Positions 13,562-53,522 of a DNA stretch of 64,000 bases are shown here, one piece after another. The stretch comes from an uncultured Verrucomicrobiae bacterium (GTDB lineage: Bacteria; Verrucomicrobiota; Verrucomicrobiia; Chthoniobacterales; JAFAMB01). The position numbers and the translations under genes are program-made. How positions within the stretch are numbered: the stretch's first letter is position 1; each line of letters begins with the position of its first letter. The notes below the pieces were generated by a model. That model saw nothing but the letters and a program-made list of their open reading frames with translations. It ran no database searches and was not told the origin of the DNA. Where the stretch lies: assembly GCA_963762565.1 (NCBI GenBank), contig CAVXLD010000005.1:160001-224000 (forward strand), given 5' to 3'.

Positions 13562-13844
13562 GGTAGGGCGAGGCTCCCGATCTTCCTCGAATCGCTCGCA
13601 AGGCGACGAGGTCGTGCAAATCTATAGGGACCAGCGCCTAAACGTCTGCCGAGCCGCCGTCAAGCGCGTGGCGATGGTCCAAAGATAGTGACGGCCGAGG
13701 CAAAACAGCAACCACTCCTACGCACCGGGTCATGGTTCACCGGGGGCCTCGGCTCGGCAGTCCATCGGCCCGGAACACAAAATTTTTAATCAACGAGGCA
13801 ATCCCTGGATAGCCGCCAAGCTATTGCGGGAGCCTCGCCCTACC
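13562..13844. repeat. REPIN-like four-arm cassette, family B copy 1
   Basis: GGTAGGGCGAGGCTCCCG-68nt-GCCGAGCCG-93nt-CGGCTCGGC-68nt-CGGGAGCCTCGCCCTACC. Confidence 0.85.
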
Positions 13845-13850
13845 AACTTC

Positions 13851-14657
13851 ATGAGTCTCCGGGTCTATTTGAAGGCGTTCGACGTGGGATTGCAGGACAC
13901 CTTTGTTTATCGGTGGAATTTCTTTCTGCGCTCGATCTTCGAACTGCTGCCCTTGATGGGGACGGTCCTGATCTGGGGGGTCGTGTTTGACCAGCGGCAA
14001 AGTGGAGTCGGAGGGTTCGATTTTCGGACCGTGATCGCTTATTTTTTGCTCGTCTTATTTCTGGACGCTTTGGTTACGCCTAAAGATGACGAATTTCAGA
14101 TCGCGGCTGACATTCGAGAGGGGCAGATCAGTGCCTTTCTGGTGAAACCGATCAATTATCTTCTCTATCGGTTTAGTCTTTTCGCCAGTAGCCGGTTGCT
14201 TTTCACAGCCATGACTTTGCCGGTGTTTCTGTGTCTCTTTGCTTTCACCGCCAGTTATTTTAGTTGGCCATCCGACATCGGGTTATGGCTGGCAGCATTG
14301 TGGACAACGGCGATGGCGGCGCTGTTGCAGTTCTTCATCACGATCTCAATCGCCCTCCTGGCGTTCTGGATGTTGGAGATATCGACTGTCGTTTTTATCG
14401 TTTATTCGTTCGAGTACATGCTGAGTGGGAGAATGTTTCCGCTCGCGTTTATGCCGGAGGCAGTTCAGCAGGTGCTCCGCTGGTTGCCGTTTCCTTATGA
14501 ACTTTATTTTCCGGTATCAGTCCTGATGAACCGGGTCCATGGCGCGGATCTTTGGTTCGGGCTGGGCGTACAGGCGTTTTGGGTGATAGCGGCCGGTGCC
14601 TTGGCCCAACTGATGTGGCAGCAAGGGCTGCGGAAGTATCAAGCCGTTGGCGGCTAG
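13851..14657 (+). CDS. ABC-2 family transporter permease
   Basis: Multiple TM helices, IAADIREGQISAFLVKP, FPL..MP motif; start at ATG 13851. Confidence 0.85.
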   Translation: MSLRVYLKAFDVGLQDTFVYRWNFFLRSIFELLPLMGTVLIWGVVFDQRQSGVGGFDFRTVIAYFLLVLFLDALVTPKDDEFQIAADIREGQISAFLVKPINYLLYRFSLFASSRLLFTAMTLPVFLCLFAFTASYFSWPSDIGLWLAALWTTAMAALLQFFITISIALLAFWMLEISTVVFIVYSFEYMLSGRMFPLAFMPEAVQQVLRWLPFPYELYFPVSVLMNRVHGADLWFGLGVQAFWVIAAGALAQLMWQQGLRKYQAVGG

Positions 14658-14665
14658 CGCGCTAC

Positions 14666-14735
14666 GCGCGCATGACCGATAGCCAATAGCCGATAGCCAA
14701 TTTCACGATCGGCTATCGGCTATTGGCTATGCGCG
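14666..14735. repeat. Inverted heptamer array (AATAGCC/GATAGCC) hairpin between convergent genes
   Basis: gatagccaatagccgatagcc ... ggctatcggctattggctat. Confidence 0.75.
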
Positions 14736-14741
14736 AAGCGC

Positions 14742-15920
14742 TCAGCGCACGAACGCTGAAGCGTAGGTCATGGTGCTAGCGCTGCGGGCCTGGCGGACAT
14801 GCCGATGAATCCACACGCTCTCAAGCACGCCAAGGGCGAAAAGGATTAGCACTAGGAAAGAGCCGCCGTAGCTGATCAGCGGCAGCGGGACACCGGTGAT
14901 GGGGGTGATGGAAATGTTCATGCCGATATTCATGAACACGTGAGTGAAAACGAGGGCCACTATGGATACGGCAGCCAATCTGCCCAGTTCGTCCGGCGCA
15001 ACCGCGGCGATTAGTAGACCCGTGAGTAATAAGGCGGCGTACGCGGTGATCAGGGTAATATCACCGACAAAACCGAACTGCTCGGAGATACCAGCGAAAA
15101 TGAAGTCGGTATGGACAATGGTCGAAGGGAGGAACCCAAGCTGGATCTGGGTATTAGGCGCAGCGAACCCTTTTCCGTTGAAGCCGCCGGAGCCGATTGC
15201 GATCAGGGCCTGATTAATGGTCCAGCTGGCTCCTTGAGGATCGTAATCCGGATCGATAAAAGTCGTGAGACGCTCTCGTTGGTAGGTCTTTAGACCGAAA
15301 TTGGCGATCACCGGCACCACGGCGACTGCCATAATGATGATGACCAAAAGGTAACGTTTCGGGATACGTCCGACAAAGAAGAGGGCTAAGAGCGGTGGCA
15401 GCATCACAAGACACTCGCCGAGGTCGGGTTGAATCAGGATCAATAGCCAGGGAGGCGCGATGATCGCGGCGCAGCTGCAAATTCGGCCCACGGTTGGCCA
15501 AAAACCAGACCAATTCCCGGTGTTAGCGAGCAGCCACGAGAGCAGGAGCAGCGTGGAAATGATCGCTAATTGAGCCGGCTGAAAACTGATTGGGCCTAGT
15601 TCGAGCCAGCTCTTAGCGCCGTAAGTTGTGCGGCCGAAGAAATGCGTCAACACCAAAAACCCGAGGCCGGCGAGGTATAAAAGGAGCGGGAAAATGACGT
15701 TGGAAAGCCAAACCCGATAATTGATAAATGAGGTGACGAAGAAGCAAACGATTGCAATCACCAGCCAGATAATCTGTCGTCTCCACATCTCTTGGAGATA
15801 AACCTCTTCCCGCATGAAGGTGACGCTATAGATAGAAATAACCCCGAAGATCGCGAGGGCGACCGCGATGACCGCTAGCAACCAATTCATGCCCAACAAC
15901 TTCCGAAGAAACAAATTCAT
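14742..15920 (-). CDS. rodA: SEDS family peptidoglycan glycosyltransferase RodA
   Basis: GAKSWLELG, QPDLG, HTDFIF, TGVPLPLISYGGS. Confidence 0.9.
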   Translation of the reverse strand: MNLFLRKLLGMNWLLAVIAVALAIFGVISIYSVTFMREEVYLQEMWRRQIIWLVIAIVCFFVTSFINYRVWLSNVIFPLLLYLAGLGFLVLTHFFGRTTYGAKSWLELGPISFQPAQLAIISTLLLLSWLLANTGNWSGFWPTVGRICSCAAIIAPPWLLILIQPDLGECLVMLPPLLALFFVGRIPKRYLLVIIIMAVAVVPVIANFGLKTYQRERLTTFIDPDYDPQGASWTINQALIAIGSGGFNGKGFAAPNTQIQLGFLPSTIVHTDFIFAGISEQFGFVGDITLITAYAALLLTGLLIAAVAPDELGRLAAVSIVALVFTHVFMNIGMNISITPITGVPLPLISYGGSFLVLILFALGVLESVWIHRHVRQARSASTMTYASAFVR

Positions 15921-15935
15921 GAAACTGGCGAGATT

Positions 15936-16736
15936 CTAATCAAGGGAAGGAACGCTGGCGAGTAAGTTTCGAGTATAGTCGTGCTGTGGGTGGGTATAAA
16001 TCGAGACAGCATCGGCCTTTTCAACTATCTGACCGCGAAGCATGACGACGACATCATGGCTGATATGTTCCACGACTGCAAGATCATGAGAAATAAACAG
16101 GTAAGAAAGCCCCAGCTCATCCTGGAGGTCTTGGAGAAGGTTGACGATCTGAGCTTGGACACTGACATCGAGCGCGCTCACGACTTCGTCGCATACAATT
16201 AGTTTTGGTTCGACCGCCAGAGCACGCGCGATTCCTATGCGCTGGCGTTGACCACCGCTGAATTCGTGGGGAAACCGGCTGCCGTGATCGCGGGAAAGGC
16301 CGACTTTCTGGAGCAATTTAGCGACTCGTTCTTCGCGTTCGAGACGGCCTAGATTAGGGAAATGAATTTTAAGCGGCTCGCTGATGATTTGTAGAATGGT
16401 CCAGCGCGGGTTCAACGAACCGAACGGGTCCTGAAAGATCATCTGGATCTGCCGTCGCCAGGGCCGGAATTCTAACTGTGATAGAGGCGTGATATCAGTC
16501 CCGGCGAATCGGATCGTGCCTGCAGTAATCGGTAGCAATTTTAGGATAGCTTTGCCGACGGTTGTTTTGCCGCTTCCGCTTTCACCGACCAAGCCGACGG
16601 TTTTACCGGCGCCGACGCTAAAAGTGACGTCGGTAACCGCTTTGATGAAGCCGGTCCTGCCTTGGAGAATTCCGGTTCTGGTTGGAAACCAGACGCTCAG
16701 GGATTCGACTTCTAGGAGGGGCGAGGCGGGGGGCAT
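15936..16736 (-). CDS. Oligopeptide/dipeptide ABC transporter ATP-binding protein
   Basis: GESGSGKT, FSGGQRQR, SALDVSVQAQ, HPQHDYT. Confidence 0.92.
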   Translation of the reverse strand: MPPASPLLEVESLSVWFPTRTGILQGRTGFIKAVTDVTFSVGAGKTVGLVGESGSGKTTVGKAILKLLPITAGTIRFAGTDITPLSQLEFRPWRRQIQMIFQDPFGSLNPRWTILQIISEPLKIHFPNLGRLEREERVAKLLQKVGLSRDHGSRFPHEFSGGQRQRIGIARALAVEPKLIVCDEVVSALDVSVQAQIVNLLQDLQDELGLSYLFISHDLAVVEHISHDVVVMLRGQIVEKADAVSIYTHPQHDYTRNLLASVPSLD

Positions 16737-16765
16737 TGAGCGTCGAACGTCCGAGAGAATCCGGC

Positions 16766-16894
16766 AGGGCGCGCGTCCCCGCGCGCCGCGAAGATGTTCC
16801 CGACCTTGAGGTGTAATTTTATCATTCGGTTATGGAAGGCCGTTTGGCTCCGCGAACGATCCGGCGGCTGCCGGACGAGGACGCGATCCCTCCC
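16766..16894. repeat. REP doublet, family C (degenerate)
   Basis: AGGGCGCGCGTCCCCGCGCGCCG ... CGAGGACGCGATCCCTCCC. Confidence 0.75.
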
Positions 16895-16919
16895 TGTCGA
16901 GGACGATTGCGCGCTCGCC

Positions 16920-17711
16920 CTACTCATTCTGACGGAGGATGGCTTCAAGGGGGCTGGTGGCCTCGGCGCTGTTGCGTTCGTGACCAAGACCGACTTCGTA
17001 GGCCATGCGGCCGGCCTCAACCGCGCTCTTGAAAGCCATGGCCATGCGAACGGGGTCAGAAGCGATGGCGATAGCGGTGTTCACAAGTACGCCGTCCGCG
17101 CCGATTTCCATAGCTTCCGCGGCATGGCTAGGTGCACCCAGGCCCGCGTCCACAATCACCGGGACGAGCGCCTGATCAATGATGATACGAATCAGGTCAC
17201 GAGTACGCAGGCCTTGGTTGCTGCCAATGGGTGAGCCGAGCGGCATCACGGTAGCCGTACCGACTTCCTCGAGACGCTTCGCCAGAACGGGATCAGCATT
17301 GATGTACGGCAACACCACAAAACCCTCTTTTACAAGTCTTTCCGCGGCGAGAAGGGTCTCAATCGGGTCTGGCAACAAGTAATGGGGATCAGGATGGATC
17401 TCCAGCTTGACCCATTTGGGCAGCCCTGCCGATGCCGCTAATCGAGCGAGACGAACGGCTTCATCCGCGTTCATGGCTCCGCTGGTGTTCGGCAGCAGCA
17501 AGTACCGAGCGGGATCGATAAAATCCAAAATGTTGGCAAAAGGATCATGGCGCCCGGACAGATCGGCTCGGCGCAGAGCGACCGTTACAATCTGGGTGCC
17601 GCTCGCTTCGAGCGCATCTCGCATTAGTAGGTTGCTAGGGAACTTGCCGGTTCCGACCAGTAGGCGGGATTGGAACTCGCGGTCGGCAATACGAATAGGC
17701 ACACTCTGCAT
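16920..17711 (-). CDS. thiG: Thiazole synthase
   Basis: [34 protein letters not shown]; start at ATG 17711. Confidence 0.96.
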
Positions 17712-17808
17712 AGCTATAATGATTTCGATTCTCCGGCTCTTCTGCTTGTAAAACGAATTTAGTGACTTGCCGCTTGAACAGTGACACGCCGCCTTTAATC
17801 TCACCCTT

Positions 17809-18369
17809 GTGAGGCTCGAGGGCGAAGAGAAATTCAACGTCAGTGGAAAACTTTTGTTGGCCCATCCTTCGTTGAAGGATCCTAACTTTCGGCGAGCGAT
17901 CCTCTTTATCTCGAGTCATGAGGAGAATGTGGGAGCCTTTGGTGTGGTCATTAACCGGCCCACCCATCAAAAACTGGCTGATTTCGTGGTTGAAGCCGAT
18001 TTACCCGGGTTAGCTGGTGTTCCGGTGTACGAAGGTGGACCGGTCTCATCGAACGAGTTGATCTTGATGGGTTTCCTCGGGGAGGCAAGTGAGGGGCCGG
18101 ATCGTTTCCAAGTGCCTTTGTCGATCCCGGATGCCGAAGAGATATTGCGGGAAAAGCGTGGTTTTGTGCGGGCGTTCCGTGGGTATGCCGGCTGGGACCC
18201 TGGACAGCTGGAGGGAGAGCTGGGCCAAAATGCCTGGTTTGTTCGGGAAGTCGATGCCGAGTTCATGGCCGGAGAACCCGACCAAACGCTCTGGCTGCGG
18301 TTTATGAAGGGCCAGGGGCCAGTTAATTATTTGTTGGCGCTGGCGCCGGACGATCCGTCTCTGAACTGA
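17809..18369 (+). CDS. YqgE/AlgH family protein
   Basis: [33 protein letters not shown]. Confidence 0.92.
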
Positions 18370-18575
18370 CGGCGTTCGGCGTTCGGCGTGATCACCTGTG
18401 GGCGTAGCAGACGATGGCACAGGACGCCGCGAATCCGCGCTGCGACCGAATGGGACTTATAGGACCTATAGGACCTATGGGTCATCCCATTAGTCCCATC
18501 AGTCCTATAGTCCGATCCGCTCGCAGCGTCCAACGCCGAACGCCAAACGCCAAACGCCGAACGCCAAACGCCAAC
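18370..18575. repeat. Nested inverted STR pairs: heptamer (GGCGTTC/AACGCCR) enclosing nonamer (GGACCTATA)
   Basis: Direct reading. Confidence 0.75.
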
Positions 18576-18618
18576 TGTTGAGTTGCCGCAGACGCTTCTA
18601 CGGGATAAACAGGGCAGC

Positions 18619-19716
18619 ATGAAGATTGGCGTTCCCAAGGAGATTAAAGAACAAGAACATCGGGTTGCGTTGCTACCGTCCGTTGTTTATCTGCTGACGC
18701 GCTTGGGGCATGAAGTGTTCGTAGAACGGGACGCTGGCGCCGGAGCGGGATTTCCGGACGAGGAATACGCGCAGGCCGGTGGCAAAATCCTCGACGATCA
18801 TGGTTCTGTCTTTGAGCAAGGTGACCTTGTCATCAAGGTCAAAGAGCCGTTGCCTTCGGAGTATCCGCTACTGCGAGAAGGCCAGATCCTTTTCACTTAC
18901 CTGCATCTAGCCGCGAACAAAACGCTGACGGAGGCTTTGATGCGCAGCGGCGTAACCGCGGTGGCGTATGAGACGGTAGAGATCAACCGTCGACTGCCGC
19001 TGCTGGAGCCGATGAGTGAGATCGCCGGACGAATGTCCATCATTGTAGGCGGATATTTCCTGGCCAAACATCGTGGTGGAAAAGGGGTGCTGTTGGGGGG
19101 AGTGCCAGGAGTGTTGCCCGGAAACGTGATCGTGATCGGCGGCGGGACGTCGGGAATCAACGCGACCCGGATGGCTACGGGCTTGGGAGCGGATGTCACA
19201 ATCCTGGAGGTGGATATCGAACGAATGCGGTTTCTCGATATTACGATGCATACGGCGCACACGCTTTATTCGAGTGAGGCGCATCTTCTGGAGATCTTGC
19301 CTCGAGCTGATCTTTTGATCGGAGCGGTCTTGGTGCCCGGAGCCAGGGCGCCGCGACTGATTACCCGGGAGATGTTGCGGATGATGCGGCCGGGTAGTGT
19401 GCTTGTGGATATAGCGATCGATCAGGGTGGATGCTGCGAAACCTCGAGGCCAACAACGCACGACAATCCGATCTACGAAGAAGAAGGGATCATTCATTAT
19501 TGCGTGGCGAATATGCCCGGAGCTTATGCCCGGACAGCAACTCAGGCGCTGACCAATGTGACGGCGCGGTTTGTTGAGTTTTTGGCGGAAGGTCTCTCGG
19601 CGGCGATTAAGAAACAACCCGCTATCGTCGGTGGAATCAATGTAATGGATGGTAAGGTCAGGAACGAAGCGGTCGCGCAAGCGCATGGACTGCCGTATGC
19701 GCCACTCGATTATTAG
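18619..19716 (+). CDS. ald: Alanine dehydrogenase
   Basis: MKIGVPKEIK, KVKEP, FTYLHLA, PMSEIAGR, DIAIDQGGC, YCVANMPGA. Confidence 0.96.
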   Translation: MKIGVPKEIKEQEHRVALLPSVVYLLTRLGHEVFVERDAGAGAGFPDEEYAQAGGKILDDHGSVFEQGDLVIKVKEPLPSEYPLLREGQILFTYLHLAANKTLTEALMRSGVTAVAYETVEINRRLPLLEPMSEIAGRMSIIVGGYFLAKHRGGKGVLLGGVPGVLPGNVIVIGGGTSGINATRMATGLGADVTILEVDIERMRFLDITMHTAHTLYSSEAHLLEILPRADLLIGAVLVPGARAPRLITREMLRMMRPGSVLVDIAIDQGGCCETSRPTTHDNPIYEEEGIIHYCVANMPGAYARTATQALTNVTARFVEFLAEGLSAAIKKQPAIVGGINVMDGKVRNEAVAQAHGLPYAPLDY

Positions 19717-19896
19717 CTCGCTTAGGCTCGCTCGAATAGCCGATAGGGCGCGGCGCGGAGCGAATGACAGATGACAGATGACAAATGACAGATTGGAAAC
19801 GGCGATGGCGTAGGCCGGCTATCGGACATTCGCTAAGCGCCGATGGGACCCATGGGGAATATAGGTCCCAATCATTTGTCTAGCGCCTGAGGTTGC

Positions 19897-25468: not shown

Positions 25469-26230
25469 ATGGCGTCGACTTCTTCACCTCCTCGAACTCA
25501 GTTTTCCCGGCCGCCAGAGCCGGTGTTTGAGCCCCTAGAAAGTATTTCATCTTATCCTTCTCACTTGGTCCGTTGGCGAGAGTGCGCGGATTCGAGATAT
25601 AAGCTATCGAGTTACGTTTTTATCGGACAAAGGACGACCAATTTGCCGGTGCGGATGGCATTTGTGGCTGGTTTGCGGTCGCACGATGATTTGGCGCAGC
25701 GGGCGTTAGCGAAGTTGCTCGTGGAATTGGAGGTCGCGCCGTTGGTTGGGCGTGATTACGCGCTGTTTTCGTATGCGCTGACGCGTGAACCCAATGATGA
25801 GGGGGCTGAAACCTTCGGGAGCGATTGGTTGGATGAGTCGTCTGGGGTACAGCCGATCCTGCAAGTTCTTGAGTCGGATTTGGCGAGCAGCGATGTGGAT
25901 GGTTTTATCTCAATCGCAACGAACGAGCGAGTGAGCGGGTTCCAGTTCGAGACCGATAGCGAATTGATTGCGGCTGAAGTTGCGTGGCCGGCGTTAGAGG
26001 TGGCAGGCCGATTCGTTCCATTGGCAGACGAACCAGTTAAAGTTTTACCGAGCGCGGTTCTGCGCCGGCAAAGAGGGCTGGGGCGTGGGGTACCGAAACA
26101 GATGTTCGGTTTGACGTTGCGGACGCCGGAATTCTCAGGTGCGGTTGAGCAAGTTTCAGCCATCGTATTTTCTTCAATCCGGGTATTGCAGGAATATCGA
26201 AGGCTACGGCGGACAGTAGTGGATCTGTAA
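25469..26230 (+). CDS. Hypothetical protein, degenerate M14 metallocarboxypeptidase-like fold
   Basis: RMAFVAGLRSHD and DGFISIATN align by eye with M14 AGxHGDE and xISLH motifs but lack the His/Glu ligands. Confidence 0.5.
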   Translation: MASTSSPPRTQFSRPPEPVFEPLESISSYPSHLVRWRECADSRYKLSSYVFIGQRTTNLPVRMAFVAGLRSHDDLAQRALAKLLVELEVAPLVGRDYALFSYALTREPNDEGAETFGSDWLDESSGVQPILQVLESDLASSDVDGFISIATNERVSGFQFETDSELIAAEVAWPALEVAGRFVPLADEPVKVLPSAVLRRQRGLGRGVPKQMFGLTLRTPEFSGAVEQVSAIVFSSIRVLQEYRRLRRTVVDL

Positions 26231-26276: not shown

Positions 26277-26371
26277 GGTGGGGCGAGGCTCCCGAACGGC
26301 GGGTTACCTTTCTCCACGATCCTGACTAGTCTCAATGAATCGTGGGCAACGCCGACAGACGCGCCGAGCCG
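26277..26371. repeat. Family B half-cassette
   Basis: GGTGGGGCGAGGCTCCCG-68nt-GCCGAGCCG. Confidence 0.8.
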
Positions 26372-26384: not shown

Positions 26385-27083
26385 TTACAGCTCGGAGGCG
26401 ATGCGCAAAAAAGCCTCCCTAGGATCGGGCGAGGCGGTAATAGGACGGCCGATTACCAGATAATCGGCGCCTAGTTTGATTGCTTCTGCGGGGGTGGTAA
26501 ACCGTTTCTGGTCACCTGCGGCTGACCAAGTCGGGCGAACGCCAGGAGTGACGATCACAAACGCTTTGCCGAACTCTTTCCGCAACGCTTCCAATTCCAG
26601 CGGACTCGCGACCAGGCCGGTGATGCCCGTTGTTTTTGCGAGAGTCGCCAGGGCGATAACCTGTTGGGTCATCGATCGATTGACACCTATTTCTGAAAGC
26701 GTGGCTTCTGTCTGGCTGGTTAGAACGGTCACACCAAGGAGCAGAGTAGAATTGGACCCTCGACCTTTTAGCGCAGCGTGACATACCTCAGAGCCTCCGG
26801 AGAGATGGATGGTCAGCATGTCGACACCTAAACCGCAGGTGGATTCAACCGCAGCTTGCACCGTGTTTGGAATATCGTGGAACTTTAGATCGAGGAAGAC
26901 CTTTGCGCCGGACGATTTTACTTCTTGGACGAAGGGCGGTCCACCCAAGCTGAAGAGCTGTAGACCGATCTTGTACCAGGAAACCCCTTGGCCGAGGACA
27001 GAGATCAAATTGCGCGCTGCGGCGACCGAAGGGAGATCGAGCGCGACAATAATTTTATCTTTCGTTGTTACAGATTCTTCCAC
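26385..27083 (-). CDS. pyrF: Orotidine-5'-phosphate decarboxylase
   Basis: IIVALD, KIGLQL, DLKFHDIPNTV, VTPGVRP, GRPIT; likely GTG start at 27083. Confidence 0.96.
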   Translation of the reverse strand: MEESVTTKDKIIVALDLPSVAAARNLISVLGQGVSWYKIGLQLFSLGGPPFVQEVKSSGAKVFLDLKFHDIPNTVQAAVESTCGLGVDMLTIHLSGGSEVCHAALKGRGSNSTLLLGVTVLTSQTEATLSEIGVNRSMTQQVIALATLAKTTGITGLVASPLELEALRKEFGKAFVIVTPGVRPTWSAAGDQKRFTTPAEAIKLGADYLVIGRPITASPDPREAFLRIASEL

Positions 27084-27096
27084 AGGGTGATTCTGT

Positions 27097-27933
27097 ATGC
27101 GGATCGCGACGCCGGCGAAGATAAATCTCACACTCGAAGTACTTGGGCAAAGACCGGACGGATTTCATGAGCTGGCGACATGGATGATCCCGATTGGTCT
27201 CTATGACGAGTTAGCGATGGAGTTGGCGTCCGAGATGAGCTACGACACGAACCTTCCGAGCCTGCGGTTCGACTGTTCAAATCTCGTTCAGCGAGCGATC
27301 GAGAGATTTCACGAAGAGACTGGTCGGACAACCGCTTATCGGATTGATTTACGCAAAGAGATTCCCATCGGCGCCGGGTTAGGCGGTGGGAGCAGTGATG
27401 CTGCCGCCGCTTTGCTCTTGTTGAATGGGTTGCATCAAAACCTGCTGCCAGAGGAGAGGCTGCTTGGGCTCGCGGCGGGGTTGGGGTCGGATGTGCCGTT
27501 CTTTTTGAGGCGGCGTTCTGCCTGGTGCACAGGCCGGGGCGAGAAGATGGAAATTCGGGAATTTCCAAACGATCGTTGGGTGGTTTTGATTAAGCCGGAA
27601 TTTGGGGTTTCAACAGCGGCGGCTTACTCGGCCTATAAGGCGTTGCCGGCGGACCAGAAACGAGGACAGACCAAGGAAACGGAGTGGGGACCTATACGCA
27701 ACGACTTGGAGCAACCGGTATTTCAGAAATATCTGCTATTACCCGAGATAAAGAGTTGGTTGGAACAGCAGCCGGAGACTGAAGTAGCTTTGATGTCGGG
27801 ATCTGGTTCCACCCTGTTTGCAGTCGTAAAGAGCGATGACGACGGACAGCAGGTAAGTTACCGCTTTTCGTTATTCTTCGGGTTCAAGTTTTGGATTCGC
27901 GTATGCAGGCTCAATCCGCGCGAACTCGCGTGA
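27097..27933 (+). CDS. ispE: 4-diphosphocytidyl-2-C-methyl-D-erythritol kinase
   Basis: PAKINL, GAGLGGGSSDAA, GSDVPFF, MSGSGS. Confidence 0.96.
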   Translation: MRIATPAKINLTLEVLGQRPDGFHELATWMIPIGLYDELAMELASEMSYDTNLPSLRFDCSNLVQRAIERFHEETGRTTAYRIDLRKEIPIGAGLGGGSSDAAAALLLLNGLHQNLLPEERLLGLAAGLGSDVPFFLRRRSAWCTGRGEKMEIREFPNDRWVVLIKPEFGVSTAAAYSAYKALPADQKRGQTKETEWGPIRNDLEQPVFQKYLLLPEIKSWLEQQPETEVALMSGSGSTLFAVVKSDDDGQQVSYRFSLFFGFKFWIRVCRLNPRELA

Positions 27934-32378: not shown

Positions 32379-32609
32379 TTGTCCCGAAGGGACTCAATGA
32401 AGGTAGCCAGGCATGAAATGCCTGGTAATTGGTAAACATGATCCGTCCCGGAGGGAACGGTATGATCCAAGGCGCTAGGTTTTGTTCACGTCCAAGACAA
32501 TCGTAAACTCTCGCCGACTCATCGTACCGTCCCGCCGGGACGGTACGCCTGGGATGCGTTTCCCAGGCATTTCATGCCAGGCTACTATCACCTAGTCCCT
32601 TCGGGACAA
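32379..32609. mobile_element. MITE/REPIN-like palindromic element, family D
   Basis: Terminal inverted repeat ttgtcccgaagggact/agtcccttcgggacaa; inner inverted repeats tagccaggcatgaaatgcctgg/ccaggcatttcatgccaggcta. Confidence 0.75.
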
Positions 32610-37465: not shown

Positions 37466-37651
37466 TTTTATGACGCAATCAGGGTCACAAACGGGGGGAT
37501 GGACTATTTTTCTAGGAGCAACGGTATCCGTTTGTTCTGGGGTTTTCGGAAAAAGATGCCGGTAATACATGCATGGAAAAAGGAGGGGGTGTCAATAAAT
37601 AAATCGGAATGATTTATTTTTGGAGAGAGGTATCGACCTCATGGCTAATTT

Positions 37652-37886
37652 GGTGGGGCGAGGCTCCGGAAAGGCCGTCAACATTTCGCAACGCGACGTC
37701 GTTTGCATAGACCATGGTAGTGCTGGTCGAAAAAGCTGCCGAGCCGGACCCAGGGTTTGCCATGTCCTCGAGATTAAGAGACGTTGGGATCGGCTCGGCG
37801 GCGAGTCGGTGCTGCACACAATGTCGGTACGAAAGCCCAGTCGTTCTGTTGGATTTCTGTCGGCCGTTCCGGAGCCTCGCCCCACC
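37652..37886. repeat. REPIN-like four-arm cassette, family B copy 2
   Basis: GGTGGGGCGAGGCTCCGG-68nt-GCCGAGCCG-44nt-CGGCTCGGC-69nt-CCGGAGCCTCGCCCCACC. Confidence 0.85.
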
Positions 37887-37933
37887 AAATTAACGACCCG
37901 CCCTACCGCCCGCGCACCAATTTCCGACATCAC

Positions 37934-38883: not shown

Positions 38884-39125
38884 GCGCTTCGCGCATAGCC
38901 AATAGCCAATAGCCGATAGCCAAGACGCGAAGCGCATGACAGATGACAAATGACAAATGGGCATGGCCACATGGGCGAATCGTGGAGCGTGCCATCTAGT
39001 GGCAAAGGGAAAGAGGCCGAATGGTCGGGTAGTCAGGAATTTTTTATGTCTGACCGGTCAGCGAATGAGATTCAATCTGTCATTTGTCATGCGCTTCGCG
39101 TTGGCTATTGGCTATCGGCTATTGA
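38884..39125. repeat. Long inverted repeat built from AATAGCC and ATGACAR heptamers
   Basis: atagccaatagccgatagccaagacgcgaagcgcatgacagatgacaaat ... atctgtcatttgtcatgcgcttcgcgttggctattggctatcggctat. Confidence 0.8.
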
Positions 39126-39199
39126 TCATTCACGCTGCGCTAATAGCGGCGTGATTCGGCTTGCCATCGTAGGCACAATCTGTAGTATCTGAAATCGTC

Positions 39200-42351: not shown

Positions 42352-42476
42352 GGGGAGGGATCGCGTCCTCGCGATCCGTGAAGGCGTTCCTAACCTTGAG
42401 GCGTGTTTTTAGTCATTCAACAATCGCCTGGCGCTCGACTTCGCGAACAACGGCGCGCGGGGACGCGCGCCCTCCC
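42352..42476. repeat. REP doublet, family C
   Basis: GGGGAGGGATCGCGTCCTCGCGATCCG-72nt-CGGCGCGCGGGGACGCGCGCCCTCCC. Confidence 0.85.
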
Positions 42477-42510
42477 GATTTGGGCGAAGGCCGGCGTCTG
42501 TGTTCAAACT

Positions 42511-43744: not shown

Positions 43745-44277
43745 GGGACGGCGCATTGGAGGCGACGCGCCGGAGCATGGATAGCGTTTCGGTGGGTGCA
43801 GTGTGGGGCAGAGCGCCCGAATAGGACTTATAGGACCGATATGACTTATAGGTCATATAGGTCCTATCCGTTGTCAGCATCTATGGTGATGAGGCACCTG
43901 AGCCTTTGCTGGGCGCCTTAGTGGCTCTCTGGGAGACGTCGGGCTTCGCGAACGGCGGATCGCGAGGACGCGATCCCTCCCGGCGTGGCTCTTTTTCCGC
44001 AAAAACCCGACAAGCTCAGCAAAACCCCGAGAGAGGGATCGGGTGGCGGACTGTATGTTCGGCTTGTGAGAATTGACTCAGGAATGAACAATAATAAGGC
44101 GCGTGTTCGCACTAGTCCGGCCTCCTTAATCTTTTCGGCGGTTTGGGGGTTCGATTCTGCTTCGACGACCTGCGGGCGTCGCAAGCGAAAGGAATTAGCG
44201 ACCCTGTACGCCGCGTACGCCTCCTTTCTAACCCACTAACTAAACGTTCAAGATAGAAATACCTAACGAATCATATT

Positions 44278-45276
44278 ATGGCATCGATTCCTTTTCGTCC
44301 GCTTGGCAGTTCCGGCATCAACGTCTCTGCCCTCGGTTTGGGCTGCATGGGGATGACTTGGGCTTACGGGCCCAGTGATGAAGCAGAAGCACTGCGGGTT
44401 CTGCGGCGCTACGTTGAGTTAGGCGGCAATTTTCTTGATACCGCCGAAGTCTACGGTCCTTACACGAACGAAGAATTGCTCGGACGATTTCTCCGGGAAG
44501 TACCCCGGGAAAGAGTGGCGGTGGCAACGAAGTTCGGTTTCAAATTGGTCAACGGCGAGCGGCTAGGGCTGGATAGTTCGCCGGAGAACATCCGCCGTGC
44601 CTGCGATGGCAGTCTACGCCGGCTAGGCATCGACCACATCGATCTGTATTATCAACATCGGGTCGATCCTAATGTGCCGATCGAAGATACCATTAGTGCG
44701 GCTAAGGAGTTGGTTGCGGCTGGAAAGGTCCGGGCCATTGGCTTGTCTGAGGCTCATCCGGACACGATTCGGCGAGCGGCCAAAGTGCATCCGATCGCGG
44801 CGCTGCAGAATGAGTATTCGCTCTGGACGCGCGACATCGAAACCAACGGCACTCTGGCGACCTGTCGAGAATTGGGGATCACGCTTGTTCCCTATAGCCC
44901 GTTAGGGCGCGGCTTCTTAACGGGAGCGATCCAGAAACCTTCCGATCTCGACCCGAGCGATTGGCGGTTAACTAATCCGCGCTTCGCTGAAGCGGTGTTT
45001 GAGACTAACCTCAAACTTGCTGAGGCGGTGAAAGCGCTGGCCGCGAAGAAAAACTGTACACCCGCTCAGTTCGCTCTGGCCTGGGTTCTGGCTCAAGGGA
45101 ACGATATGATCCCGATCCCGGGCACCAAGCGGCTGAAGTATCTGGAAGACAACATGGGCGCGCTAGCCGTGCAGCTAACCGAGGCCGATCTGAAGGAGAC
45201 AAATGCGACCTTCAGCGAGCTGGCCGTGGCCGGCGAACGTTATACGCCCGAGTTGATGGCCGCGGTGCATCGCTAA
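44278..45276 (+). CDS. Aldo/keto reductase
   Basis: [40 protein letters not shown]. Confidence 0.94.
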
Positions 45277-45278
45277 TC

Positions 45279-45401
45279 GGGGAGGGCGCGCGTCCCCGCG
45301 CGCCGCGAGGGTGTGCCACAACCCTAAGGCGTATTTTCACCCGAGATCACAATACATCCTCGGCTTCGGTAACCACGGATCGCGAGGACGCGATCCCTCC
45401 C
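45279..45401. repeat. REP doublet, family C
   Basis: GGGGAGGGCGCGCGTCCCCGCGCGCCG-70nt-CGGATCGCGAGGACGCGATCCCTCCC. Confidence 0.85.
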
Positions 45402-45624
45402 GGCGTTGGGCCTGGCACTCAATCCGAGAACGGAGGCGCCGCGAGCGGCGCGACGGTGTAAGCGCGCCCGCATCCGGTCTGTCAAGGGAACGTTACTTGA
45501 CACTATTAAAGCCCGACCTATCAAATAGGGCTTCTCGCGAACATGGAGGATTCATTACCGGATGTTGATGCTGTTCCCAAGGCGTGGTTGTTCGATTTGG
45601 GCCCCGGTCGAGCGCAAATCCAGT

Positions 45625-45662: not shown

Positions 45663-45683
45663 TCGCCAGCTTTACACCTTTCT

Positions 45684-48245: not shown

Positions 48246-48273
48246 GCGCTAAACTCGCCAGAAGCTCGGTAAG

Positions 48274-48515
48274 CAATAGCAAATAGCAAAAGCGGAGTTC
48301 AAGGAGTTCAAGGGGTTGCAGGAGTTCAAGGAGAAGAGCGGTGGACGAGCTTTGGACGGAGCCGCGTGCTGTCTACTTAAAGAAATGCCACGCGACAAAG
48401 CGACCCCCAAACGTCTTGTGAGTGACACCCGGCCTCCTGATCCTGGATGCCCGCCTTGAACTCCTGTAACTCCTTGAACTCCTCGAACTCCTTCTTGTAT
48501 CTGCTATTTGCTATT
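48274..48515. repeat. Nested inverted STR pairs: heptamer (AATAGCA) enclosing nonamer (AGGAGTTCA)
   Basis: aatagcaaatagca-[ggagttcaaggagttcaa ... ttgaactcctgtaactccttgaactcc]-tgctatttgctatt. Confidence 0.8.
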
Positions 48516-48546
48516 ACGGAGCGAGCTTCAGGCGAGCTCCGGAGAT

Positions 48547-49284
48547 ATGAACTCTAAGCGGTTAGTGCCATTCATTGCTGGAATACTGGCTGGCCTATTG
48601 GCCATTTGGCTCCTAGTTGCTTACTTGCTGGTTCCAATGGGTTGGAAAATGTATGCCTCCCGGCACAAAGCGATCACCGATGGACCCCGGATTACCACGA
48701 CCAGCGCTGGCATACACGGTGACCCGCTTAATCTTTCTTTTATTGGAGACGAAAACGATTTGGTATCGGCGATGTTAGCTGCCGGTTGGTATCCGGCAGA
48801 TCCAATTACTCTGAAAAGCAGCCTCCGTATCGCCGAGAGTACGATTTTTCATCGGCCTTACATCGACGCTCCGGTGAGTAATCTGATGCTGTTTGGCCGC
48901 AAAGAGGATTTAGCGTTCGAAAAACCCGTCGGAAACGATGCACGTCAACGCCATCACGTTCGCTTTTGGCAGGTGCCGGCCCAGAGCGATTCCGGTAAGC
49001 CATACTGGCTTGGCGCCATCACTTTTGATCACAGCGTTGGGTTCAGCCATACGACTGGGCAAATCACCCACCATATTGCGCCGGATGTAGATACCGAACG
49101 AGACGGTTTGATCGTTGATCTTCAACGAGCCAGTAAGGTTTCTTCAATTGATTGGGAAGACAATTTCCAAGATCCTCCCCAAGGCCGGAATGGGGGAGGT
49201 GATCCCTGGAGGACGGACGGCCGTTTGCCAGTCATTACGCTGGCGACGGCAGCGCCAGTTGCGTCCCCGAGTGCGTCGCAGTGA
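48547..49284 (+). CDS. LssY C-terminal domain protein
   Basis: N-terminal TM, GDPLN, APVSNL.LFGR.EDLAFEK, RHHVRFW, THHIAPDVD.ERD, NGGGDPW.TDG. Confidence 0.85.
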   Translation: MNSKRLVPFIAGILAGLLAIWLLVAYLLVPMGWKMYASRHKAITDGPRITTTSAGIHGDPLNLSFIGDENDLVSAMLAAGWYPADPITLKSSLRIAESTIFHRPYIDAPVSNLMLFGRKEDLAFEKPVGNDARQRHHVRFWQVPAQSDSGKPYWLGAITFDHSVGFSHTTGQITHHIAPDVDTERDGLIVDLQRASKVSSIDWEDNFQDPPQGRNGGGDPWRTDGRLPVITLATAAPVASPSASQ

Positions 49285-49528
49285 GGGGGCGATCCTCCGG
49301 CTTCGCCCTAGCGGCGTTTTCTCCGCAATCGTCCATTCCTCGATCGTCAACGATCCAAGAAAGGAGCAGTATGAACCTTCCAACTCACTTATTCTTGGAT
49401 GCAGAGATCGCTAAGAGGCGCCTCCGAGAGGAGTTTATGCCGCCGTCAGAGGCGGATTCGGACGACCGCTAACGCGGTTTGGCCCCCTGCAAGGACGTCC
49501 AACCCAGTGGCGTCGCAGCGTGCAAATC

Positions 49529-49679
49529 GGGGAGGGCGCGCGTCCCCGCGCGCCGTTAGGACGTGCCATCACCCAAGGCCGTATTTTTGTCCGGGATTTA
49601 CAACCCGTCCTCAGCTTCGCTAATAAAGCGGATCGCGAGGACGCGATCCCTCCCGCGCGCGGCGACGCGCGCCCTCCCC
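49529..49679. repeat. REP doublet plus extra REP, family C
   Basis: Doublet with 73-nt spacer followed directly by a third REP. Confidence 0.85.
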
Positions 49680-49694
49680 GAACGAAGCTCCTTA

Positions 49695-50603
49695 CTAGGA
49701 AGCAAGCAACGCCTTACGTAGCTTGCACACCATCGTGTAAGCGGGATCGAATATGTTTCCTAGATCATATTCAACACATTGGCCGAGGAGAATGCTGGCG
49801 CTGACGGTGTCCAAGCCATAATCCTCGCCGAGCCAACGCAGCATTTCCGTTGTGGCATGCTGCACCGCTTGATCCAGCGGCCGAGCGTTCCCAACGGCGA
49901 AGATATATTCCTGGTTTTCGCCGCGAGGCCAACGAATCCGTTTTCCTTTGCTCAAGCGGACGGTGAATTGGACTTCCATCGAGATTTCTATCCCGGTACC
50001 GACGATCTCGCCGTCGCCTTGAGTGGCATGACCATCTCCAACATGGAGCAGAGCACCCGGCGCAAAGACGGGAAAATAGACCGTTACGCCCGCAGCAAAC
50101 CCTCGGTAATCCATATTTCCACCATGTTCAGCCGAGGTGTCAGTCGAGATCGCTTGGCCTTTCGACGGAGCTACTCCGAAGCAACCAAGCATCGGCGCCA
50201 GGGGGATGGTCAGATTTCTGAGCTTGGTATCTTTTTTCAGCAAACTGGCGGTTCCGCCCTTGTTATCGATCCGCCATTCCACCACGTCCGATTCGGGGAG
50301 CTGGCGAACAAAGGATGGATCCACCACATTCGGCGCGACCACCGAACGGGTGTACCCAATCGCCCGATTCGGCGAGATCCGATCTAACTCAACGACCAGG
50401 GTGTCACCCGGTTCTGCGCCATCGACGTAAAAGGGGCCGGTCTGGGGATTCCCTCGCGGTGTCACTTCCGTATCGCTCGCGTCCTTACCCCAAGCATCAA
50501 CCGTGGTCGTGATGACGGTATCGCCGTTCGCGATGTGCAACACCGGCGGATGCGAACCGATAACAGTGTGATAATGAGTGGGCTGGAAATGGTGGGTCGC
50601 CAT
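49695..50603 (-). CDS. Acetamidase/formamidase family protein
   Basis: NPQTGPFYVDGAEPGD, HGGNMD, GDGHATQGDGEI.GTGIE. Confidence 0.92.
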   Translation of the reverse strand: MATHHFQPTHYHTVIGSHPPVLHIANGDTVITTTVDAWGKDASDTEVTPRGNPQTGPFYVDGAEPGDTLVVELDRISPNRAIGYTRSVVAPNVVDPSFVRQLPESDVVEWRIDNKGGTASLLKKDTKLRNLTIPLAPMLGCFGVAPSKGQAISTDTSAEHGGNMDYRGFAAGVTVYFPVFAPGALLHVGDGHATQGDGEIVGTGIEISMEVQFTVRLSKGKRIRWPRGENQEYIFAVGNARPLDQAVQHATTEMLRWLGEDYGLDTVSASILLGQCVEYDLGNIFDPAYTMVCKLRKALLAS

Positions 50604-50690
50604 GGTCTGATCTCACGCGATGTGGTCGTGGACGCAAGGACCGAGTGGGCGAAACGGCGAAACGGCGCACGCGCGAATGGGCGAGACGCC

Positions 50691-50964
50691 TGGAGGGGAG
50701 CCGCTTTGGCGCGTGCCCAAGAATCCCGCGAATTTGCTCCGTCATGATCACGGCCGAGAAGCGTGCACAACAAGCGGCTCCCGCGATTGACCCAGCGCTA
50801 CGTTAGTTCTCCGGCCCGCGCAGAAAACGAATCAATGAAGCGTTGGATGAAGCATCCCGTTGGGTAATTTCCGGGAGCCGCTTGCTTTCACGTTTTCAAG
50901 CCAGGCTCGCGATATGACAAATATCGTGAGGTCTTTAGGCGCGCGCCAAAGCGGCTCCCCTCCA
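50691..50964. repeat. REPIN-like four-arm cassette, family A copy 1 (flanked by inverted octamer arrays 50644-50690 and 50978-51015)
   Basis: TGGAGGGGAGCCGC-69nt-GCGGCTCCC-90nt-GGGAGCCGC-69nt-GCGGCTCCCCTCCA. Confidence 0.85.
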
Positions 50965-51016
50965 GGCGCTCCGCGCCCGGTCGCCGTCTCGCCCATTCGC
51001 CCATTCGCCGTTTCAC

Positions 51017-52567
51017 CTAGCCCTTCCGCTTCCGCCTCGGTTTGACCGGCTTCGAGTCGAACGACCAGCGCCCAAGGCGATAGGTGCGCGCGTAACCGGA
51101 TGTGCGGTTAGCAATGGTTACCGTTAGCGATCCACTGGAATCGCATTCGTATCGTTCCTCGATGTTCTGAGAGGCAGCTTCCGGCGAACGCACCACCGGC
51201 GTTTTTTGCAGGTCGCTCTTATTTGCCAGCGCAGGATCAAAGGGAAAACGGATTTCGTCCCAGAGCGCGATTTCGCCACTGGGCACTCCCGAAGGTGGAC
51301 GATGACTGCACTCCAAGAAACGGAAATGGCCGATATTGTGGGCAGGAGAATAGCAGCGGCTTAACGAGAGATTCGGCTCCCCGGGTGATGGTAATCTCAG
51401 TCCTTTTTCAAATAACGGATCGAAAATGATGCTGGTTCCGCCGTATCCTTCTCTCCACACACCGAAGTATCGGGAAAGATGTTCGCTTAACCGATAGGTG
51501 CCCGGCTGATCGGCTTGGATCGCCAGCCCAATGGCCGTTGCCGAACGGGCGTAAGCGGACCGTCGAACCCGCCGTCCAAATCGTTCCCGCAACATTCTCG
51601 AAACCAAAGGCATTTCACTTCCGCCGCCGGTGATATAGAGAACGTCGCACTCAGGGCTTAGATCCTCTGCTGCCCGAATCGTCTCTTCTACTGCCGGGCG
51701 AGCCGTTTCGTAAAAGTCTCCGATCGGAACCTGGACCGCTTGCCAATCCTGATTCGCGTGCTCCAAGTCAACCGTGATTCGGCGCGTATTGGGGTTTAAC
51801 GCCTCCTTTTTGAGCCGGCATTCTTCCAGGAGACGAAACCAAGCGGAGGCCGGCAGGTTGTCGATGGCCTTTTGACTGAGTCCAGCCACCTCCAAAGCGA
51901 GCTCAGCCAGCATCTGGTCGAAGTCGTCTCCGCCGATGGTGGGGATGCCCTCGGAAGCAACGACGTGATGCACATTCTCATCGAGCTTGACCAGCGAAGC
52001 ATCGAAAGTGCCGCCACCAAGGTCGTACACTAGAATCGTTTCCGGGCTACTCTTGCTCTGTCTCTTGCCGTGCCCGAATTCGATGCTCGCAGCACTGGGC
52101 TCATTCAACACACCGAGTACGTCGAATCCCGCGTTCCGAAACGACTCCACGGTAAGAAAACGCTGATTGCTATTAGCATGGGCGGGAACACCAAGAACAA
52201 TCTGCAGGGTCTCACCAGTGGGGGTCTGCAAGTTTGAGCGTTGGCGCAAGGTGGCCAACAAAGCGCTTGTGAGGCCGTCAAGCAGGGCAGCCAATTTCAA
52301 TTGGTTTTCACCAAGATCGAGGAGAGTTTGCGGGCCGGCGTCTTCCAACAACCGTTTTATCGAGCGAATCACCGTCCATGATTCGTCGCCTTGTTTATCG
52401 TAGGCGTCCCACCCGTACGACCGTTCATCGCCTCGGATCGCTACCAACGACGGAAACCAATCTGCCGAAGTTCCATCGGGTGCATCGAAGCTAACGAGTG
52501 GGTAATTGCCGCGATCGGCGGCAGCGACTACGATCCGATTAGTACCAAAATCAACACCTAACTTCAC
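51017..52567 (-). CDS. Atypical Hsp70-family protein
   Basis: GVDFGT, NEPSAA, YDLGGGTFD, GGDDFD, TGGGS; C-terminal region not DnaK-like. Confidence 0.88.
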   Translation of the reverse strand: MKLGVDFGTNRIVVAAADRGNYPLVSFDAPDGTSADWFPSLVAIRGDERSYGWDAYDKQGDESWTVIRSIKRLLEDAGPQTLLDLGENQLKLAALLDGLTSALLATLRQRSNLQTPTGETLQIVLGVPAHANSNQRFLTVESFRNAGFDVLGVLNEPSAASIEFGHGKRQSKSSPETILVYDLGGGTFDASLVKLDENVHHVVASEGIPTIGGDDFDQMLAELALEVAGLSQKAIDNLPASAWFRLLEECRLKKEALNPNTRRITVDLEHANQDWQAVQVPIGDFYETARPAVEETIRAAEDLSPECDVLYITGGGSEMPLVSRMLRERFGRRVRRSAYARSATAIGLAIQADQPGTYRLSEHLSRYFGVWREGYGGTSIIFDPLFEKGLRLPSPGEPNLSLSRCYSPAHNIGHFRFLECSHRPPSGVPSGEIALWDEIRFPFDPALANKSDLQKTPVVRSPEAASQNIEERYECDSSGSLTVTIANRTSGYARTYRLGRWSFDSKPVKPRRKRKG

Positions 52568-52640
52568 TACCCGTATAGTGTAACGAAGTTGTGCAATCCG
52601 CTAGGCGGGCACTGCGTTTTTTAGAAGTTAAGAGTTCTTG

Positions 52641-52931
52641 GGTGGGGCGAGGCTCCCGCAAGGTGAGATGTCTTGACCGAAGGAATCAAAATTTCCGGCC
52701 CCGATTTAATCAGGCTAGGCCAATACGTTCGCCGAGCCGCGGCCCGGCGTTCACCAGCACCCGGTGGGAGAAAACGGCGCTGAGATTCGCGCGCTGACAG
52801 GGGAGGAAACATTAGAGCTGGCAAGCGCTGGGACCGGCTCGGCGCGCGTAGAGGCGTAGGTCGCGGCTGGGAAACGGAAAGCTCAGTTTCTTCGCACGTA
52901 CCATTTGGCCATTCGGGAGCCTCGCCCCACC
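52641..52931. repeat. REPIN-like four-arm cassette, family B copy 3
   Basis: Arms with 72, 95 and 70 nt spacers. Confidence 0.85.
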
Positions 52932-53003
52932 ATCGCGGACACGCCGCTTCGCGCTTGTCCTTGCCCGTCCACCTTGATACGCTCACTCGCCGGAGGAAAA
53001 ACG

Positions 53004-53393
53004 ATGTCGGACCGTAACACTATCAGTATCCTTATTTCTCAGGAAGCATCTGAACCGCCGAAAAGAGTCGCCGGCATTCCCTGGTATCCGGGGATCACGG
53101 TTTTGCAGGCAATGGTGATCGCACAATCGATGCACCCTGGAAGCTTCTCGTTCCGAGTGCTTTACCATTCATTTTACGGCGCCTTCGTCGACATGATCGA
53201 CGGCGCCACCGATGCGGACCCGAAGTATTGGACTGTTTCGGTCAGCAATAACCCATTACCTGTCGGTGTGAGCGAAGCGATCGTGCTCGAAGACAGGCAA
53301 GGGGAAAACGTTGAAATCGAATGGCGCTTCGGCATCCCGGAGGCCGACGACGCAGCCCAAGCGTCGCGTAAGACGAAGGCTTTAGCGGAGTGA
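53004..53393 (+). CDS. DUF4430-like (transcobalamin C-terminal-like) protein
   Basis: TVLQAM, YGAFVDMIDG, YW..SV, VGVS pattern; start at ATG 53004. Confidence 0.6.
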   Translation: MSDRNTISILISQEASEPPKRVAGIPWYPGITVLQAMVIAQSMHPGSFSFRVLYHSFYGAFVDMIDGATDADPKYWTVSVSNNPLPVGVSEAIVLEDRQGENVEIEWRFGIPEADDAAQASRKTKALAE

Positions 53394-53426
53394 GCGCCCC
53401 GGTAGGGACGATCCCCCGCATTTCTT

Positions 53427-53522
53427 GGTGGGGCGAGGCTCCCGAACGACCTAGAATTGTCAGCGAAGAATTCGAACCTGGCTAAACTGGGCGTCTGCTT
53501 CGCCGTTTGGCTTGCCGAGCCG
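53427..53522. repeat. Family B half-cassette
   Basis: GGTGGGGCGAGGCTCCCG-69nt-GCCGAGCCG. Confidence 0.8.

Follow-up and report, generated by a model that had tools for sequence, protein, structure and literature searches.

The 64,000-nt stretch of DNA analysed here (the window; G000:C5:160001-224000) belongs to a 6.12-Mb genome assembly with 54% G+C (G000) and carries several copies of a repeat, family B, whose half unit consists of arm 1, a spacer and arm 2, and whose full cassette is an inverted pair of half units. Family B is very probably the population of repetitive extragenic palindromic (REP) elements and inverted REP doublets (REPINs) of a single REP-associated tyrosine transposase (RAYT), an HUH/Y1 enzyme acting on single-stranded DNA, with the loop of the REP hairpin stretched to ~70 nt of drifting sequence. 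We observed an association with a RAYT gene, homology to compact REPs, covariation of the stem across families, drift of the spacers, copying of cassettes and a better conservation of doublets. In the mechanism we propose, each half unit would be one REP, and two REPs facing head-out around a short central hairpin would form the copied unit, a REPIN of ~210 nt. The RAYT would read only the tag and the basal stem, which could explain why these stay nearly invariant in every copy and at orthologous sites, and the loop insert, unread by the enzyme, would drift nearly neutrally. Its length would be kept because all copies descend from one ~69-nt insert in which small insertions and deletions (indels) are rare, possibly with some help from mild selection on spacing.

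Arm 1 (GGTRGGGCGAGGCTCCSG) has eight exact matches in the window (13562+, 13844-, 26277+, 37652+, 37886-, 52641+, 52931- and 53427+), where 0.02 would be expected, and arm 2 (GCCGAGCCG) has nine matches against 1.34 expected, eight of them paired with an arm 1 and the ninth (17564-) without such a partner. A first-pass annotation of this DNA had described three full cassettes (starting at 13562, 37652 and 52641) and two half cassettes (26277 and 53427), and all eight halves proved to lie where it had put them, with spacers that measured exactly the same again (68/68, 68, 68/69, 72/70 and 69 nt, in order along the window). The first cassette, a REP doublet of 283 nt (13562..13844), consists of arm 1 (13562-13579), a 68-nt spacer, arm 2 (13648-13656), a long centre, and then arm 2' (13750-13758), a 68-nt spacer and arm 1' (13827-13844), and occupies the whole gap between two co-directional open reading frames (ORFs; 12581-13555 and ~13851-14657). 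The second, of 235 nt (37652..37886), has arm 1 at 37652-37669, a 68-nt spacer and arm 2 at 37738-37746, followed by arm 2' at 37791-37799, a 69-nt spacer and arm 1' at 37869-37886; the inverted repeat around it reaches 37646-37892. The third, of 291 nt (52641..52931), has arm 1 at 52641-52658, a 72-nt spacer and arm 2 at 52731-52739, a long centre, and then arm 2' at 52835-52843, a 70-nt spacer and arm 1' at 52914-52931. Both solo half units are on the plus strand: 26277..26371 (arm 1 26277-26294, 68-nt spacer, arm 2 26363-26371), which is flanked by the convergent ORFs 25469-26230 (+) and 26385-27131 (-), and 53427..53522 (arm 1 53427-53444, 69-nt spacer, arm 2 53514-53522), after which no arm 2' follows.

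Genome-wide, we found 572 arm-1 sites with at most 3 mismatches, 355 of them exact. An exact arm 2 lies within 142 nt of 427 of the 572 sites, and 101 sites have no arm 2. The arm-to-arm distance is 65-72 nt in 406 of the 427 pairs (mode 68-69 nt, standard deviation (SD) ~1.4 nt), with 21 outside this range. The distribution is as narrow as the annotation had predicted; a broad spread would have refuted its proposal. The predominant arrangement is the inverted doublet, which accounts for 418 of the 572 arms in 209 cassettes, leaving 154 solo halves. Doublet length has its mode at 207-213 nt, and in this commonest form an outer arm (TTGGTRGGGCGAGGCTCCSGAA), a spacer, an inner arm (GCCGAGCCGTGG), a ~10-nt loop, CCACGGCTCGGC, a second spacer and TTCSGGAGCCTCGCCCYACCAA follow one another. 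The length of the cassette centre is far more variable than that of the spacer, and large insertions are tolerated there. The cassettes are extragenic, 132 of the 209 lying entirely outside open frames of at least 200 codons, compared with 16% for random segments. Arms in doublets are better preserved than those of solo halves, with a mean of 0.43 mismatches (295/418 exact) as compared to 1.24 (60/154 exact). Altogether, family B makes up about 1% of the genome sequence. Folded as single-stranded DNA, the cassette at 37646-37892 reaches -73.1 kcal/mol (z -8.98 relative to shuffled sequence), with an outer stem of 26+5 bp and a central stem of 13 bp, so that family B shows both the inverted pairing of REPs and, in the one cassette folded, the predicted hairpin of a REPIN.

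Each half unit has the anatomy of a REP. Positions 2-5 of arm 1 read GTAG in 46% and GTGG in 53% of 453 units, which is the tag of a REP, and the tag is followed by an 8-position stem (GGCGAGGC/GCCGAGCC) made of 3 bp, a tandem G.A mismatch and 3 bp. The stem falls within the 5-13 bp of known REPs; the strands are 71-73 nt apart, well beyond a loop of 2-20 bp. In sister genera and other bacteria of the Planctomycetes-Verrucomicrobia-Chlamydiae (PVC) group we found a compact REP of 26 nt whose ends and 8-position stem are the same and whose loop has only 4 nt (TCCY). The pattern GGTRGGGCGAG-N(4-34)-CGAGCCG occurs 85 times in G014, 33 times in G017, 21 times in G010 and 18 times in G018, mostly as hairpins of 25-26 nt, and a control pattern read backwards has no match in any of the four; these compact REPs and those of other PVC records share their ends with family B. 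Records titled Planctomycetota, Phycisphaerales, Gemmataceae and Verrucomicrobiae contain the stem of family B in its exact form, closed by TCCY and often in tandem arrays, and G000 has one copy. RAYT homologues of sister genera (46-56% identity) are flanked by compact hairpins sharing both family-B ends, either as GGTAGGGCGAG + 8 nt + CGAGCCG or as GGTAGGGCGAG + CCTCCCGG + CGAGCCG, and in G017 the compact REP stands as inverted doublets beside the RAYT gene (L048).

Furthermore, the stem covaries across families. At 24 RAYT-flanking loci, 34 of 113 GGGCGA sites have the reverse complement of their next 3 nt joined to GAGCC within 120 nt, with 3 in the reversed control. The tag-GGC-GA...GA-GCC frame is constant across these loci and the segment behind it covaries, with eight different stem starts (GGC, GAA, AAA, ATT, AAGCC, AAACC, AAATC and AGACC) that are always complementary. 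A constant frame with a covarying stem, together with compact relatives having the same ends, therefore identifies family B as that REP with ~66 extra nt in its tetraloop. The 'split REP' that the annotation had described, with a variable segment inside the hairpin loop, is thus confirmed by relatives that join the same ends by 4-8 nt and by a stem that covaries across eight families. The split pattern was present in 6/6 genomes of the genus and in 0/25 genomes of other genera.

Several further arrangements of these REPs came up in the same searches. Units that look like genuine split family-B copies, with the same small sequence boxes in the spacer (GAA, CC and C-RRR-G, described below), occur on long contigs of records titled Alphaproteobacteria (L095) and Actinomycetota (L130), which could reflect mis-binning, a labelling error or horizontal transfer. 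In a record titled Verrucomicrobiae (L115), ~20 compact REPs with the family-B stem are lined up head to tail, one every ~38 nt. A REP of 49 nt that shares these ends occurs ~20 times in G017 (L063 and other sites), and the sequence of its 31-nt loop insert is conserved; this is a loop expansion of intermediate size which, unlike that of family B, has not drifted.

The partner gene, RAYT-B, lies outside the window (G000:C10:17378-17833, minus strand) between two inverted half units. At this locus (G000:C10:17254-18009), arm 1, a 67-nt spacer and arm 2 are followed by the gene and then by arm 2', a 67-nt spacer and arm 1', which places the flanking halves ~750 nt apart. It was found by listing arm pairs 500-6000 nt apart and not through Pfam. 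The encoded protein (L021:176-781(-)) matches the NCBIfam model NF047646, 'REP-associated tyrosine transposase', with 83.1 bits (cut-off 80, E 1.7e-23), and its sole PDB match is E. coli TnpA-REP (4er8_A, E 6.2e-7), with which the H-hydrophobic-H (H-L-H) and Y..NPV..G.V (Y-x3-NPV) motifs align. The family model and the HUH and catalytic tyrosine motifs by which a RAYT is recognised are thus all present. RAYT-B is single copy in G000, its paralogues there being 48%, about 32-33% and 30% identical, and it has orthologues in G002 (83%, both flanks seen), G003 (80%) and G004 (87%), the latter two with one flank each as the other is cut by a contig end. The flanks of all three orthologues have the same arms and different spacers. 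As in known REPINs, then, the repeat flanks a cognate RAYT that is usually single copy, and the link to RAYT/HUH nucleases that the annotation had drawn is upheld by a gene sitting between two inverted half units. Binding and cleavage of the family-B halves by this RAYT would be expected. Other candidates for the partner were rejected: the PF01797 search of the genome yielded 12 genes, none within 1.4 kb of a family-B arm, and among the other arm pairs L022 and L023 hold only repeat-derived open frames and L024 a small hydrophobic ORF.

The spacers had been described as unrelated by eye, and this holds for their middle only. In an information profile of the 453 units the arms are nearly invariant (arm 2 97-100%) and the middle 30-40 nt of the spacer are close to 0 bits. 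Small boxes are conserved, however, with GAA at 19-20, CC at 24-25, C-RRR-G at 38-42 and some positions ahead of arm 2; the boxes show that the spacers are all homologous. Indeed, 379 spacer pairs align at E <1e-3, as compared to 0 pairs for shuffled spacers, and 155 of the 453 have a detectable relative, clustering (sizes 40, 14, 11, 11, 6, 6 and smaller) at 72-94% identity, with 298 singletons. The subfamily masters are all 68-71 nt long. In the three largest pairings within cassettes, cluster 0 is paired with itself in 15 cases, cluster 1 with cluster 2 in 8 and cluster 4 with cluster 5 in 5. Duplication therefore involved entire cassettes, the spacers having diverged from a set of subfamily masters: the copied unit is the doublet. 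The annotation had allowed that its proposal would fail if the spacers were diverged copies of one ancestral interior matching a described REPIN. What we found agrees with this in spirit, except that there are several interiors, in an element of the REPIN type.

A ruler-like mechanism conserving spacer length, as suggested by the annotation, is not supported: the spacers drift gradually with species distance, and indels are rare and do not compensate each other. At orthologous sites and at the RAYT locus, spacer identity is 83% between G003 and G004, 70-74% between G002 and either of these and 54-67% between G000 and G002, the shuffled background being ~54%, with spacers of 66-70 nt and an arm 1 with 0-3 mismatches, none in most copies. 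In G002 the cassette at 13562..13844 has an orthologous copy whose arms are identical and whose spacers show 63-67% identity, whereas in G003, G004 and G005 the site is empty. Cassette 37652..37886 also has an orthologous copy in G002, with spacers of 70/70 nt at 57% identity and 3 mismatches in the left arm. Neither cassette 52641..52931 nor half unit 53427..53522 is found in the orthologous gap of G002, where other repeats are present. The gaps showing presence or absence (G002; G003-G005) are too diverged to display clean insertion joints. Within six subfamilies (88 members) we counted 0.68 indel events and 14.8 substitutions per member, i.e. 0.046 indels per substitution. The variance of the net length change is 1.18, as compared to 0.91 expected for independent signs, and the net change is 0 in only 1 of 15 members with at least 2 indel events. 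The narrow spread of lengths is thus mostly due to common descent from one ~69-nt insert together with a low rate of small indels.

Spacer length might instead be actively selected within the same REPIN-RAYT family, with a ~69-nt protein-bound or geometry-setting loop bringing the arms together, a reading that we consider rather unlikely. It would fit with an SD of ~1.4 nt over 406 units although 298/453 spacers are singletons, with masters all of 68-71 nt and boxes at fixed spacer positions, and with a centre whose length is free (96/209 cassettes at 200-220 nt) as compared to 21/427 arm distances outside 65-72 nt. Common descent and a low indel rate, however, account for most of this narrowness; the indels within subfamilies are rare and uncompensated (1.18 against 0.91; net 0 in 1/15), and related RAYT families operate with loops of 4 to ~50 nt. 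A specific form, in which the ~70-nt insert would be a length-selected module whose GAA, CC and C-RRR-G boxes are bound by the RAYT or a host protein that joins the stem strands, appears quite unlikely to us; if true, such 'giant-loop REPs' would be a distinct functional class in which the loop sequence is free to evolve new roles. A more serious, if still doubtful, possibility is that the stem within each half is a relic and that the working structure is the hairpin of the whole doublet, with arm 1 acting as a terminal inverted repeat (TIR) like that of 'TIRtron' repeats. The cassette at 37646-37892 indeed folds with a z of -8.98, as compared to 0.00 for a half alone, doublets are better conserved than solo halves, and tyrosine-transposase genes with long flanking TIRs that form repeat families are described in the text of Di Nocera et al. 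2013 (PMC3733652). TIRtrons and TIRYT resemble family B in that long inverted repeats flank such genes at some distance and also form dispersed families, and their shared motif GGGGWSAS is close to the GGGGCGAG of arm 1, with one mismatch (PMC3733652). The enzyme of family B, on the other hand, scores as a RAYT equivalog, and the arms combine a GTAG-like tag with a REP stem homologous to that of compact REPs. Arm 2 equals arm 1 in invariance (97-100%) and is still complementary to it, with the non-complementary GA/GA pair that all compact relatives keep, none of which a pure TIR model would need. The halves flanking the RAYT are ~750 nt apart. We lean towards a stem that truly forms across the insert within each half, and hold the formation of the doublet hairpin alone to be a tentative alternative.

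The annotation had also considered that the spacers might be captured DNA or guide-like RNA. Capture of foreign or genomic DNA by a ruler, CRISPR-like or producing guides, could produce the narrow length distribution and the low information in mid-spacer, yet we regard it as next to inconceivable, as it is contradicted by subfamilies copied together with their partner half, by orthologous spacers that decay gradually instead of being replaced, and by genome matches that are all explained. Against the rest of the genome, 7 of the 453 spacers match outside recognised units, six of these spacers hitting degenerate family-B copies and one containing another repeat, and the one cassette tested against phage and plasmid collections (window 13562-13844) had no match; the shared boxes, moreover, argue for homologous spacers. 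The foreign, mutually unrelated spacers added at one end that characterise an array of captured spacers are therefore not what family B contains. It is very improbable that family B consists of structured small RNAs or is an ordinary miniature inverted-repeat transposable element (MITE) of a DDE transposon, even if its high copy number, intergenic location and terminal inverted repeats would suit either. Rfam gave no match in the window at the gathering threshold, and at E <=10 on 52560-53640 a single chance-level match to a flavivirus motif (E 3.1). The folding energy of the spacers equals that of shuffled sequence (z -0.24; 150/453 spacers), no helix joining the 5' part of the spacer to its 3' part exceeded expectation in a scan, and alifold with explicit pair counts in four subfamilies revealed no compensated helices, the predicted or hand-picked ones being broken by single transitions. 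Neither a match to a curated model nor a fold supported by covariation, by which a structured RNA would be recognised, was thus found, and guide-like RNA loses its footing. As for a MITE, the only gene found between arms is the RAYT; the family-library scan in the survey of arm pairs covered the RAYT ORF, and the ORFs in the other pairs 500-6000 nt apart included no transposase on inspection by eye.

Several observations weigh against a REPIN population with a stretched, drifting loop. The conserved boxes inside the spacer are left unexplained by it. Arms that remain intact at orthologous sites while the spacers randomise need selection or conversion in place, for which the model has no explanation, and the orthologue comparison itself is based on few pairs (6 half units between G000 and G002, and 5 comparisons at the RAYT locus). 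Spacers reach at most 94% identity with one another and near-identical copies are absent, so there is no sign of recent transposition in G000. The NF047646 score of RAYT-B is only 3 bits over the cut-off, Pfam Y1_Tnp does not match the protein at E <=0.1 and the PF01797 search of the genome omitted it. With this query, no orthologue of RAYT-B was found in G005 (81% complete, 105 units) or G001 (89% complete, 17 units). Half unit 26277..26371 folded alone as single-stranded DNA gives a z of 0.00 against shuffled sequence, the stem within the half not being predicted; no helix extends from the stem into the spacer, and the fold of the doublet favours arm1:arm1' and arm2:arm2' pairing over the stem within each half. 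Since nearest-neighbour folding does not predict that stem, the hairpin across 71-73 nt would be a matter of evolutionary homology, as suggested by comparison of sequences.

In the IS200/IS605 family, the HUH/Y1 enzyme reads subterminal hairpins in single-stranded DNA; family B differs from these elements in having one copy of the enzyme gene for several hundred repeats. A close parallel is with the REPINs of Pseudomonas fluorescens SBW25, presented in the text of Bertels & Rainey 2011 (PMC3116915) as inverted REP doublets that form hairpins and have a single-copy RAYT flanked by them; their conserved ends enclose a spacer that varies more in sequence but whose length is important (71 bp between invariant 16-mers). 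Family B is alike in that an inverted doublet is copied, strongly conserved ends enclose a more variable stretch of stable length, doublets are better conserved than singlets, and the hundreds of copies are extragenic with a RAYT flanked by the repeat; it differs from what that text describes in that a variable segment of stable length lies inside each REP loop and not only between REPs, that the doublet is ~210 nt long and that near-identical copies are absent (PMC3116915). In the text and Table 1 of Di Nocera et al. 2013 (PMC3733652), REP stems have 5-13 bp and loops 2-20 bp, with one family reaching 27 bp; an unpaired GA is possible in the stem, a verrucomicrobial family has a GTGG tag, and head-to-head dimers, an association with tyrosine transposases and a planctomycete with many tyrosine-transposase genes flanked by repeats are also described. 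The terminal tag, stem size, GA mismatch, dimers and tyrosine-transposase link of this GTAG-tagged superfamily are all found in family B, in which the 71-73 nt between the stem strands, unconserved in sequence, go beyond the loops of 2-27 bp given there (PMC3733652). Among the literature we found, only this paper, as far as its text goes, touches on Verrucomicrobia and Planctomycetes, and a full-text search returned no REPs with ~70-nt loops and no REPs in Chthoniobacterales, the figures and supplement of PMC3733652, which were outside the search, being places where related repeats may be listed. The claim of an undescribed element architecture therefore stands for the stretched and drifting REP loop; the underlying REPIN-RAYT system was already known, and is not a capture system.

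We believe that family B offers a natural experiment on recognition by RAYTs, as the tag and the 8-position stem with its G.A pair are fixed while the loop randomises. It also appears that a REP loop can grow from 4 to ~70 nt without the family coming to an end. On a practical level, current definitions and tools for REPs and REPINs would overlook such families or break them up into singlets, because published loops reach 20-27 bp and RAREFAN, as described in its preprint (bioRxiv 10.1101/2022.05.22.493013), calls a REPIN only with both seeds within 130 bp; the outer seeds of family B, ~190 nt apart, exceed this limit. The negative side of the outcome is that there is no new DNA-capturing or guide-RNA system here. 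Family B and several sister families occupy much of the intergenic space of the genome.

Each of the three RAYT paralogues in G000 is flanked by an inverted repeat family of its own, in which complementary arms enclose a variable interior. The one at G000:C1:579805-580251 (33% identical to RAYT-B) is flanked by a second palindrome family of the window, the interior there being ~35 nt. In the window this family forms elements of ~280 nt (50690-50968, 55373-55646, 56963-57243 and 60163-60445), each with an arm CTGGAGGGGAGCCGC..., a variable stretch, ...GCGGCTCCCG and the mirror image, and the 9-nt cores of the arms are perfectly complementary. The paralogue at G000:C7:542253-542699 (48%) has its own inverted REP with complementary arms and a variable loop of ~31 nt, and that at G000:C4:78558-79009 (30%) its own inverted REP with a variable loop of ~75 nt by a rough count of the flanks; the latter gene was matched in two pieces and may be broken.

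The window contains other repeats besides these. Many intergenic gaps (3642-3819, 4957-5136, 18371-18551, 38888-39143 and 48294-48491) contain 7-9-nt tandem repeats in mirrored arrays on both sides of a core of ~80-160 nt. Two long inverted repeats belong to other families, one with arms of 50 nt at 86% complementarity (32379-32428 / 32560-32609) and one with arms of 35 nt at 94% (60847-60881 / 61093-61127). A short G+C-rich hairpin repeat, with GGAGGG and a CGCGCG-type stem, is found at 16755-16830, 42437-42482, 43942-43986, 45272-45406, 49522-49684 and 57805-57834; a copy related to it, with 177 matches in the genome, lies in the family-B spacer at G000:C9:18607.

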